13,624 nt of DNA from a virus (lineage: Duplodnaviria; Heunggongvirae; Uroviricota; Caudoviricetes), in IMG/VR virus record IMGVR_UViG_2711768007_000009; one strand, 5' to 3'. Positions 1-3,000 of the stretch are shown in pieces. How positions within the stretch are numbered: the first letter of the stretch is position 1; each line of letters opens with the position of its first letter. The position numbers were made by a program.

Positions 1-3000
1 GAACAGGAGGGACAGCTGATAGAAACAGAAGCCACTGGAGCACCTCAAAAACACCATCATACACTAAATCAGTAAGTTGGCAGCATCACCAGCCTTCTTG
101 AGGCTACCACCTGTTTTCAGGTGTCATTCAGACGTGATTTGCCCCAGATTGGGAAAGCACGCTTTTTTCTCAGCTATCGTCCTCTTATTTTGCCGTTACA
201 TTTCTTTTTGCATTCTAATGATTAATTTACAATAATAATATCGGTAATTATTGAGTAATAATAAATTAATTATTGCAAATGTAATTTAATTCCATCTTCG
301 CGTTATATTCCAATCTTTAATCTCCGCATGGAACAAGTTGCATGCGTGACTATATTAAGACGACTTATAACCACCAAAACATTTGCTTTGCAAGCAAAAA
401 CAGTGACCATTGACTCTAAGAAAATTCCGATCTATTGTTAGGGTCATCAAAGTTACTTAACAGTATTCCGAAATGAAAATACAAAGCAAGCTAATTGTCT
501 TATTAAACATTATTATTGCATTTATATTATTTGAGCTTTTAGCTCAAAAATTTGGTTTGAGTACATTATTTTAAAGCAAGATAAACAATATCGGGCACTC
601 TAGTTTTTATAATTAACAATTAAACGTCCATAAAATGTTATTTACTTTTCTTCGCTATTGTCATATCTTAATATAGTGGCTTACGCCACTCTACTTTCAT
701 CACATTTTGTACGTTTATGTACTCGCCATGAAGCTCTTTCATGGCGATTTTTTATTCTTAATCCAAGAACATACTCCCTACCTATAGCAAAATCACTTTT
801 TTAACAAAAGAATAACGTATTTAGGTAATCATTACGAATTTACCCTATAGGTGCTACTGGCCATTCAATATCCGGTGCAGTTGATGTATCAACACGGTTC
901 AGCAACACCCGATACTTTTTCCAAGCTTCCAGCAACAAGGTTTCTTTCTCCGTTGCGATCTCCAGATCCACAGCATCCTGAAGCGGCGCTATATGCTCAC
1001 TGGCTACCTGCATCAGGCTGTTTTTTGTTTCTTCCGCCTCCCGGATCCGGAACAGTTTTTCTGCTTCCGTATCCTTCACCCAGGCTGTGCCGTTCCACTT
1101 CTGAAACTCCCCTTCCGGGGATAACCAGGTGACATTTTCCGGTAATGAGCCGAGTTCAGAAATAAATAACGCGTCGCCGGAAGCCACGTCATAAACCGTT
1201 TTACCCCGATGATCTTCAACGAGATGCCACGATGACTCATCACTGTTGAAAACAGCCACGAAACCAGCCGGAATATCTGGCGGTGCAATATCGGTACTGT
1301 TTGCAGGCAGACCTGTATGAGGCGGAATATATGCGTCACCTTCACCAATAAATTCATTAGTTCCGGCCAGCAGGTTATAAATTTTTATGGTCCGTGCTTG
1401 TTCACTCATTCTGAATGCCATTATGCGAGCCTCACAATATAGTTAAATGCGATGTTTTTGACGGTGTTTTCCGCGTTACCAGCAGCGTTAACGGTGATGG
1501 TGTGTCCATGTGAACCAATCGCAACAGAGTGCGTATGAGCACCAATACCGACAGTATGCGCGTGTGCACCCGCAGATGCTGCTGTGCCGGACAGTGAGTG
1601 TGTATGGTTTCCTTCTGAAGATGATTTACCTACCCATTGGGAGGTGCCACTGGTTAATGAGCCACTGATACCAACCTGATTAGTCCCGCTAACTTGAGTA
1701 CTCCCTGCCGGAAACATTCCAGTAGGTTGACTCCCGCTATTCGTTCTGGGCCCAGTCTGACTATGTTGGTGGGCCCCAGCTGAACTTGTAGAGCCGCTCA
1801 GACTGTGCGTATGCGCCCCGGTGTTATTCGTGGATTTAGTGCCGTAATCAAACGACGATGTGGTTTTCGTCCCCAAATCCGTACTGGATGCGCTGGCGCT
1901 GTGGGTGTGCGATTTAATGCCATCCTGTTCCTGAGACAATACGGCACGACCACTGGCGGGCTTGCCCTTAATCGTCCAGCCACGCATATCAGGGATCACG
2001 CCTGACGGATAAGCGGCTGCAAGTTTCGGGTAAGCAGATTTGTCAAAAGTCTGCCCCTGCATCAGGGCATAACCAGACGGAACGGTATCTGATGGCCACG
2101 GGATTGGTGCACCGACTGGATAAAACTCTGCAGGAGGATGAGCCGAGGTGTAAAGCTGCGCCCACGGCGACCAGTTTGCGTCGGTCGTATCCCGTCGTGA
2201 ACGAATAAATGCCGGAGCATGAGCACCGCTTGTACCACTCCAGCCGATGAGTAACTCACCTTCGCCAACGGCTGTCATCCCTTTCAGGTGAATGATATTT
2301 CCATACGCTGTTGGATATCCGTTGTTATACACCTCGTATAACTCAAGACCTGCTGCCCCCTGCGTATTGTCTGTCAGCGCGGCTACCCGACCTTTTGAAG
2401 CCAGATTAACTGATGATACTGCTGTTCCACCTGACGGTAGCGCCCCGATCTCTGATGCCGTTGGCTTATTTCTGGAGTTATAGTCCCTTCGCCAGCCAGG
2501 TGAATAATCTGTTCCGTGATTAATATAGGTAAACTGGGCGTTGGTTGTTCCGCCACCGCTGGATGTGGTCGGAGTGGTAATGCGGATCGTCATCGCTGAC
2601 TTTATCCCCATTACTTCAATGACAGCTCCGGCGAGATGAATATTACCGCAGCCAGTATCAGTAATGATTTTATTATTGCCATAAGACCAGGAACCCTTGC
2701 ACATCCAGTATGGATGGTTAAATGCTCCCTGAGAATCCAGCCACTCGATAAACTGTGCAGTCGTCCAGTTTCCTGTTGTTGTGCTTACTGACCCACCGAA
2801 GGCACGGCAGGCACCAATATTTTTCGTAAAGGTGTCTTTGCCAGGGATATCCGCACCGTTCTGATCTTTCTGCAGACGTTTCTCAGCATTGTCATTGGCT
2901 GCTTTTACTGCCTTTGGCGTTGCCGCCAGCGTTTCAGACGTGCTGTTGGTCGCGCTGCTTAGCTGGATTATCCCTTTCTGTGCTGTCGTTGCATCCTGTG

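Follow-up and report, generated by a model that had tools for sequence, protein, structure and literature searches.

We analyzed a 13,624-nucleotide stretch of DNA from a Caudoviricetes virus (IMG/VR record IMGVR_UViG_2711768007_000009), referred to here at its full length as the window, in which an AT-rich island lies beside the tail-fiber assembly gene tfa of a lambdoid prophage. Within this island we identified a conserved module of about 545 bp (~294 to 839, plus strand) that is arranged tail-to-tail with tfa and comprises a candidate promoter, a 33-codon gene, a structured 3' region, and a terminator. The reading that we favor, with a probability of roughly 70%, is that the module is a phage moron, an independently transcribed plus-strand unit for an inner-membrane peptide resembling Escherichia coli YncL, expressed in the lysogen and insulated from the tail operon by its own terminator. 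The unit is probably under stress or stationary-phase control.

The gene corresponds to an open reading frame (ORF) at 473 to 574 on the plus strand (21.6% G+C; MKIQSKLIVLLNIIIAFILFELLAQKFGLSTLF), and its assignment as protein coding and under purifying selection is well supported by sequence comparison. Three lineages of the module were compared: A, to which the window belongs; B, represented by L010 and 94 to 96% identical to A; and C, represented by L009 and L033 and 78.6% identical. The ORF was intact in all 57 fetched copies of the module, which carried six nucleotide variants and four peptide variants. The first search for these copies used a pattern taken from the 5' end of the ORF itself; a scan blind to the ORF and anchored on the 3' block recovered the same 48 viral contigs, plus one that stops short of the ORF.

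Between lineages A and C, 18 of the 99 nucleotides of the ORF differ, with 10, 7, and 1 of the differences at codon positions 3, 1, and 2, respectively, and these result in only five residue changes, most of them conservative. When the same substitutions were placed at random, 11.1 residue changes were expected, and five or fewer occurred in 0.045% of trials (P = 4.5e-4). Lineages A and B differ at six nucleotides of the ORF and at a single residue (P = 0.017). Lineage C also carries a 5-nt indel at the stop codon, which re-forms TAA in frame. When 140 sliding 33-codon segments covering the module in all frames were ranked, the true frame came first, and the only segments open in all three lineages were those in the reading frame of the 473-to-574 ORF. 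Other ORFs of the island were examined and rejected: the one at 328 to 441 (plus strand) is frameshifted in lineage C by a 2-nt indel, the one at 658 to 804 (plus strand) meets a stop at codon 3 in lineage C, and those at 77 to 235 and 121 to 225 lie within the lineage-specific left part of the island.

The product is a predicted single-pass small membrane protein, and its homology to YncL is supported by sequence similarity at a level below the family cut-off. YncL was the only NCBIfam family matched by both peptide variants searched (E = 1.3e-5, 25.0 bits; E = 3.7e-5, 23.5 bits). Ungapped alignment to YncL of E. coli K-12 over residues 1 to 28/30 gave Smith-Waterman scores of 60 to 61, compared with 20 ± 4 for composition-preserving shuffles, none of 20,000 of which reached the observed value, and with 13 to 35 for a panel of 17 other sequences made up of small hydrophobic proteins and type I toxins. 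The peptide has the attributes of the YncL family, namely a length of about 30 amino acids, a single hydrophobic helix, a short basic N terminus, and a C-terminal K/R-F-G motif. No significant match to the peptide was found in Pfam, PHROGs, or PADLOC.

The ORF is embedded in what appears to be a complete transcription unit. A consensus scan placed a candidate promoter at 410 to 438 on the plus strand (TTGACT, a 17-nt spacer, and TATTGT), with a predicted start near position 445 and with a TC just ahead of the -10 hexamer (TCTATTGT) that resembles sigma-S promoters. The candidate promoter is 86 to 90% conserved between lineages A and C, versus 74 to 77% for its flanks. The leader and start region are AU-rich and nearly unstructured (-1.9 kcal/mol); an unstructured start region is compatible with translation in the absence of a Shine-Dalgarno sequence.

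Downstream of the ORF, on the same strand, lie hairpin H1 (675 to 690; AGTGGC-TTAC-GCCACT), in which two stem substitutions give U-G wobbles on the plus-strand RNA; an unpaired linker (691 to 708; CTACTTTCATCAYATTTT), which varies at one C/T position among 14 distinct sequences that include the 78%-identical lineage; hairpin H2 (709 to 722; GTAC-GTTTAT-GTAC); and an intrinsic terminator (723 to 757) with an 11-bp stem containing five G-C pairs, a 3-nt loop, and the tail TTTTTTATTC. The terminator ends 83 bp before the tfa stop codon. Its stem is followed by a T6 run when read on the plus strand but by no T run when read on the minus strand, and a role as the terminator of tfa was rejected for this reason. 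The predicted 313-nt transcript folds with a z-score of -4.4, and its last 118 nt with a z-score of -6.6. Across the hairpins and terminator, 98% of stem cells are paired in the alignment, and all four one-sided stem changes keep plus-strand pairing (G-U or A-U), and three of them would be A-C mismatches on the minus strand.

The conservation profile of the module follows these features. Between lineages A and C, identity is 77% in the upstream part (294 to 409), 74% in the leader (439 to 472), 82% in the ORF, 70% at 575 to 607, 74 to 75% at 608 to 660, 87 to 89% in the H1/H2 segment (661 to 722), 91% in the terminator, and 65 to 68% at 758 to 839, and it falls to 45% in the 3' end of tfa (840 to 873). 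The peaks (82 to 91%) thus coincide with the candidate promoter, the ORF, the hairpins, and the terminator, and the spacers lie at 65 to 77%.

In E. coli, the module is present in 828 of 5,426 complete genomes (15%) as 941 copies, all chromosomal and at most four per genome, and none of the listed records carries any annotation under the match. It was also found in four records, representing three phages, of a 50,697-record phage collection. Its G+C content is 31.0%, compared with 51.0% in the rest of the window. At least three genomic contexts were observed: the arrangement of the window, Qin-type prophages inserted in ydfJ, and a position beside the cargo operon sitABCD. In 56 of the 57 fetched copies a tfa gene or tfa 3' fragment lies next to the module on the opposite strand, and about half of the 57 carry a second tfa 3' remnant, in the same orientation, on the far side. 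The tfa genes joined to the module are of different types, that of lineage C being unrelated to the gene of the window (840 to 1421, minus strand). These patterns suggest that the module moves by recombination, with the conserved tfa 3' end apparently serving as the handle. They also agree with the first-pass annotation, which had proposed, from the sequence of the window by itself, a hotspot of cargo and exchange past the tail-fiber genes: the module adjoins three different cargoes or flanks (an AraC-family regulator resembling YdeO, sitABCD, and a truncated ydfJ), and is often bracketed by tfa 3' remnants. As a dispensable insert that is present or absent among related phages (15% of genomes, truncated in L005, and beside differing tfa genes), the module behaves as a moron would.

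The sole copy without tfa-like sequence within 1.3 kb downstream (L026, IMGVR_UViG_2617270979_000006) loses similarity about 10 bp into tfa. In L005 the module is reduced to its final 167 bp (window 673 to 839), beside a decayed tfa 3' fragment. Decayed tfa 3' ends in direct orientation were also found beyond the module in Qin-type prophages (L002 4893 to 4990 and 4159 to 4253; L009 3892 to 3991; L005 3937 to 3998), and these look like a graveyard of successive tail-fiber cassette exchanges. In lineages B and C (L010 1 to 2765; L009 1 to 2922) the module sits between sitABCD, an iron/manganese transporter operon on the plus strand, and tfa, and its plus-strand terminator is the last one ahead of the tail genes.

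A number of observations weigh against the interpretation of the module as a moron with a YncL-like product. The YncL scores lie under the curated 35-bit equivalog cut-off (NCBIfam NF000537); since the homology is significant and yet below equivalog level, we refer to the product as YncL-like, or as a paralogue, rather than as YncL, and the low score would also explain why the NCBI pipeline left the ORF unnamed. Diversity is low, with three lineages and six ORF sequences, so the selection test rests on few substitutions, and the comparisons of A with C and of B with C are not independent. No Shine-Dalgarno sequence precedes the ATG, where K-12 yncL has AAGGTGG. The promoter is a consensus match of a kind that is not enriched in the region (6 found, 4.8 expected), and a covariation test of the three hairpins found no compensatory double changes. 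Scans of 185,579 species-representative genomes with a protein pattern and with the invariant 3' DNA block gave no hits, and nothing outside E. coli and its phages was seen to carry the module. Gene callers hardly ever call the ORF, and its cluster has two members in a collection of about 15 billion proteins.

An exhaustive phmmer search of 1.84 billion representatives likewise returned only the peptide itself and one frameshift variant, and a literature search for the peptide string found no paper that contains it. The frameshift variant (P0003; 43 amino acids, metagenome-derived) departs from the peptide after residue 26 within a AAAAATTT run (MKIQ...LLAQK, then IWFEYIILKQDKQYRAL), and is either a rare disrupted copy or a homopolymer sequencing error. 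The near absence of a conserved gene from so large a protein collection is of interest in itself, as small membrane proteins are systematically missed by annotation, and here an unannotated conserved gene occurs in about one in seven E. coli genomes.

The best-surviving alternative, which we regard as possible and put forward tentatively, is that the functional product is, or includes, a small RNA (sRNA) of about 100 to 135 nt, derived from the 3' untranslated region (UTR) or produced independently, that ends at 723 to 757, uses the linker at 691 to 708 as a pairing or protein-binding site, and possibly shares a dual function with the mRNA. The 3' region is the best-conserved part of the module (87 to 91%, compared with 65 to 77% in the spacers), the linker between H1 and H2 is unpaired and yet invariant at all but one position, the region folds with a low z-score (-6.6), and its layout of hairpin, U/A-rich linker, and U-tailed terminator resembles Hfq-type sRNAs. 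A TATAAT hexamer lies at 608 to 613 (TACAAT in lineage C), where it could serve an independent transcript, but its putative -35 element is poor. In Salmonella, the yncL mRNA likewise entered the catalogues as an sRNA, STnc1110 (PMC5437024).

The first-pass annotation had suggested that the island might hold regulatory DNA, an sRNA, or small proteins, and of these the small proteins gained support, from a YncL relative under purifying selection. For an sRNA, the conserved structured 3' region speaks in favor, yet no Rfam family matched the island: with permissive thresholds, applied to the island and to the full intergenic region of phage mEp332, only tRNA-fragment matches and a chance-level match to MicC (E = 1.5; 22.8 bits against a threshold of 90 bits) were returned. 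Nor do the stems show compensatory changes, and the only partner for the linker within the window is the linker itself, with no complementary target elsewhere in it. An sRNA alone would moreover leave the codon-position pattern of 473 to 574 unexplained, and therefore at most adds to the protein-coding reading and does not replace it. A bolder combination, which we consider doubtful, is a mobile dual-function cassette in which the mRNA of a depolarizing YncL-like peptide also yields a 3'-end sRNA whose linker (691 to 708) would target a host or phage transcript; the peptide would act in superinfection exclusion, abortive infection, or the dormancy or stress tolerance of lysogens, and the cassette would hop from one lambdoid prophage to another through recombination between directly repeated copies of the tfa 3' end.

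A type I toxin-antitoxin system, in which the 33-residue peptide would be a membrane toxin that stabilizes the prophage or aborts infection and is restrained by a small RNA, either antisense or located nearby, is in our judgment unlikely. The peptide is small, hydrophobic, and prophage-borne, a 33-residue product with one hydrophobic helix is of the kind expected of a toxin ORF, the 3' UTR is long and structured, and YncL production is known to lower viability and to depolarize the membrane (PMC12542507). A minus-strand promoter-like site at 664 to 635 would yield an RNA antisense to the ORF. However, no conserved antisense promoter and terminator pair could be recognized, the regions where one would be expected (575 to 660 and 380 to 440) are the least conserved, and a palindrome at 383 to 402 is lost in lineage C. 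The start region of the ORF is open rather than sequestered, PADLOC returned no defense-system match, and alignment scores against Hok, Ldr, TisB, ShoB, Ibs, DinQ, ZorO, and Fst were at background.

The setting of the module was reconstructed by comparing the whole island with related prophages and phages. In 200-nt segments, G+C content is 0.26 to 0.35 across ~100 to 850 and 0.44 to 0.65 in the tail genes (overall, 0.321 for 76 to 839, 0.485 for tfa, and 0.555 for the side tail-fiber gene stf), in agreement with the sharp drop reported by the first-pass annotation. The island has 31.5% G+C, against 49 to 56% in tfa and stf. Its report that no ORF exceeds 60 codons was also confirmed, the longest ORF inside 76 to 839 encoding 52 amino acids and the longest stop-free stretch spanning 58 codons, and the tfa stop indeed lies at 840. 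Mononucleotide shuffles of 76 to 839 gave longest stop-free stretches of 66 ± 15 codons, 36% of them at or below the observed value; the shortness of the ORFs is thus at chance level and by itself uninformative. Missing long ORFs in AT-rich prophage DNA are no evidence against coding, and the lack of coding capacity that had been read from them is contradicted by the conserved ORF at 473 to 574. Nothing pointed to a decayed long gene as the origin of the island: a distant DNA search of the phage collection returned only four records, all near-identical, and no more diverged relative bearing a larger gene.

The flanks of the island turned out differently from the initial description, which had placed it between convergent genes and bounded it on the left by the stop (73 to 75) of an unidentified plus-strand ORF. 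No such gene exists; leftward extension in related genomes led into an IS1A-family transposase region, and both neighbors of the island, insA and tfa, are on the minus strand. Positions 1 to 90 (minus strand) are the end of a complete insertion sequence, IS1, consisting of the terminal inverted repeat and the start of insA, with the GTG start codon at 35 to 33 read directly from the sequence; the island therefore truly starts at position 91. These 90 bp are identical to the end of the IS1 in L001, which is 768 bp long, has inverted repeats beginning GGTAATGACTC and GGTGATGCTGC, and is annotated in RefSeq as a coding sequence with a programmed frameshift. A length of 768 bp, imperfect terminal inverted repeats of about 23 bp, and insA/insB' genes with a programmed frameshift are hallmarks of IS1. 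An IS1A-family transposase is annotated there by RefSeq in all 30 genomes listed of the 283 that hold the arrangement of the window.

Relative to the isolated phages mEp332, PhiR70_1, and ev099, the IS1 insertion is accompanied by the loss of 550 bp (L006 1951 to 2500) of the ancestral intergenic region, with junctions at L006 1950 and L006 2501 and without a target-site duplication. The three phages carry the island at 98.5 to 99.2% identity without IS1, and in them the tfa stop and the start of the AraC-family regulator, which is on the same strand as tfa, are 1.5 kb apart. The IS1 junctions differ in strain CE0021a (L004 4243 to 4940), where the element directly adjoins the AraC-family gene at one end and position 214 of the window at the opposite end, which points to repeated IS1 activity or to IS1-mediated deletions at this spot.

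Between IS1 and tfa the island is a mosaic of three parts, of which the first two (91 to 293) are recombination debris. The first, 91 to 175, is the distal 85 bp of an attachment-site arm common to lambdoid prophages that integrate at serU. It is 96.5% identical to L003 3001 to 3086 of E. coli 042, where it lies 111 to 196 bp from the displaced serU 3' fragment at the prophage end; in that strain the same serU junction is found at the tail-fiber end of a serU-integrated prophage, and the first 196 bp of phage DNA are common with mEp332-type phages. The second part, 176 to 293, is an AT-rich spacer that contains aataataata and is confined to the phage lineage of the window, as judged from similarity break-points: Qin-type copies match only from 262 and sit-type copies only from ~294. 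An ORF scan combined with lineage comparison found no conserved ORF in this spacer. The third part is the conserved module.

In mEp332, ev099, and PhiR70_1 the arm extends leftward into the serU 3' fragment and yodB-serU DNA. There, a 338-bp block (L006 2051 to 2388 in mEp332, with counterparts in L007 and L008) matches the K-12 chromosome at 96.7% identity and consists of 278 bp of the yodB-serU spacer plus nucleotides 1 to 60, counted from the 3' end, of serU (tRNA-Ser(CGA)). ARAGORN found no complete tRNA in the uninterrupted region, the serU piece being a 60-nt fragment. In the window the serU fragment was deleted by IS1, leaving the 85 bp of the arm. The locus is the tail-fiber end of a lambdoid prophage that occupies the classical attachment site of lambda, beside ybhB-bioA, and the gene order in genomes with the identical arrangement is bioA, ybhB, IS fragments, the AraC-family regulator (minus strand), IS1, the island, tfa, stf, lom, and J. 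Because the prophage of the window sits at this site, its 91-to-175 segment is a fossil. The yodB-serU block carried by viable phages likewise looks like a fossil of serU integration followed by imprecise excision, and we infer from these alignments that an ancestor integrated at serU, captured some host DNA, and later gained a lambda-type integration module. Two direct repeats in the phage arm beside the serU fragment (CGAAAAATCAAAGAGTTA and CGAAAAATCAATGAATTA; L006 2403 to 2420 and 2458 to 2475, 55 bp apart) are candidate arm-type integrase binding sites of serU-integrating phages.

This history invites the view that the module, too, is non-functional debris, AT-rich junk left by tail-fiber exchange and IS activity, probably silenced by H-NS, with an ORF that arose by chance. 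The mosaic structure, the far-side tfa remnants in about half of the copies, the IS1 with its adjacent deletion, and the serU fossil all fit such an origin; AT-rich codons naturally give Ile, Leu, Phe, Lys, and Asn; and the ORF has no Shine-Dalgarno sequence and lies in DNA where the absence of long ORFs is at chance level. For 294 to 839, however, debris is an improbable explanation, as it does not account for the synonymous bias and frame preservation of the ORF, its specific similarity to YncL, the uneven, feature-shaped conservation profile, or the retention of 941 copies across different prophage backbones. A further reading, which we consider very improbable, takes the region as extended regulatory DNA upstream of the neighboring regulator gene, or as its 5' leader. 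In favor of this reading, mEp332, ev099, and PhiR70_1 have no other convincing annotation between tfa and the regulator, and AraC-family genes acquired horizontally typically have AT-rich DNA upstream. Against it, the Qin/ydfJ and sitABCD contexts have the module without the regulator gene, the 338-bp fragment of chromosome and tRNA separates the two in the intact phages, and a whole IS1 intervenes in the window.

The regulator itself is the next cargo gene past IS1 and encodes 247 to 250 amino acids (L001 4373 to 5116 and L006 1001 to 1753, both on the minus strand). The protein most closely matches YdeO (E = 2e-43, far under the equivalog cut-off), with GadX second, and is a prophage-borne relative of the acid-resistance regulators; the flanking IS fragments are annotated as IS2 in phage records. 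On the other side of the island, the Rfam model IS009 (RF02111, typed as 'Gene') scored 218 bits at 880 to 1078 on the minus strand, wholly inside the tfa coding sequence, and this match is, here at least, to a conserved coding segment of tail-fiber assembly genes and not to a free-standing RNA gene. The side tail-fiber protein (1,029 amino acids; 1421 to 4510, minus strand) contains an Ala/Ser/Thr-rich low-complexity region at roughly residues 110 to 470, and this stretch of the gene (especially 3100 to 4007) yields overlapping spurious ORFs of 250 amino acids on both strands.

Under the moron interpretation, the following sequence of events would be expected. In the lysogen, the promoter near 410 to 438 would start a transcript of about 310 nt near position 445, and the AU-rich, unstructured leader would permit its translation without a Shine-Dalgarno sequence. 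The peptide would insert into the inner membrane and, like YncL, partly dissipate the membrane potential, and this depolarization might shift the cell toward low activity and stress tolerance. The conserved 3' hairpins may stabilize the RNA, and the terminator at 723 to 757 would halt the transcript before it could run antisense into tfa and stf. The module would spread among lambdoid prophages via recombination at the conserved tfa 3' end. As the isolated phage mEp332 (PV340541) carries the module and grows on K-12, these predictions are easy to test.

Comparison with known systems places both the locus and its cargo. Like the lambda b region and the lambda bio and lambda gal phages, the mEp332-type phages carry host DNA (yodB-serU) captured beside a former attachment site, as in imprecise excision; in contrast to those systems, the captured piece is only 338 bp long, is fixed in the viable phages mEp332, ev099, and PhiR70_1, and accompanies a different, lambda-type attachment site today. 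With its IS1 end, attachment-site fossil, and captured host DNA recognized, the anatomy of the locus is now corrected. Prophage type I toxins (the Hok family, RalR/RalA of Rac, and ZorO) are also small prophage genes with hydrophobic, membrane-acting products, an action that the module's peptide may share, but they differ in having a cognate antisense RNA, none of which was detected here by sequence, and translational sequestration, and are not similar to the peptide in sequence. The lambdoid morons lom and bor of lambda and cor of phi80, HK022, and N15 resemble the module in being extra units at the tail-fiber end with deviant base composition, patchy presence among close phages, their own terminator, a putative promoter, and a membrane protein that probably acts in the lysogen. 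The module's terminator is clear (11-bp stem and T6) and its candidate promoter is a conserved consensus match; compared with lom, bor, and cor, the module encodes a far smaller product (33 amino acids), is oriented against the late operon, and is unannotated.

Among small membrane proteins, YohP and other stress-induced members in E. coli have a similar size, a single transmembrane helix, and a depolarizing effect on production, and YohP and YncL have been studied together (PMC12542507), but YohP shows no similarity to the peptide beyond composition (score of 25, compared with 60 for YncL). YncL (b4598 in E. coli K-12; STM14_1932/STnc1110 in Salmonella) remains the closest counterpart. It has 31 residues, compared with 33 here, and each protein has one predicted transmembrane helix; they have in common M1, S5, K/R6, V9, L10, N12, A16, L19, F20, L22, and the K/R-F-G motif at 26 to 28. 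The leader is short in both, a C stands ahead of the putative -10 element both here and in the promoter region of K-12 yncL, and the predicted transcript of the module is, like the Salmonella mRNA, small enough to pass for an sRNA. Identity is only ~35%, however, and whereas K-12 yncL is a core gene (1517099 to 1517194) between patD and ortT, the module gene is prophage-borne beside tfa, occurs in 15% of genomes, is much more AT-rich, and combines a start without a Shine-Dalgarno sequence with a 183-nt conserved structured 3' UTR and a canonical terminator. YncL is among the few small proteins whose effect on the cell has been described: its expression increases upon heat shock, in minimal medium, and in stationary phase, and it causes sublethal membrane depolarization, nucleoid condensation, and a phage-shock response (PMC12542507); in Salmonella yncL is sigma-S dependent (PMC5437024), and the protein is an in vivo substrate of the protease RseP (PMC10470546). 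A phage-borne relative of YncL suggests that temperate phages may use the same trick to alter the physiology of their hosts.

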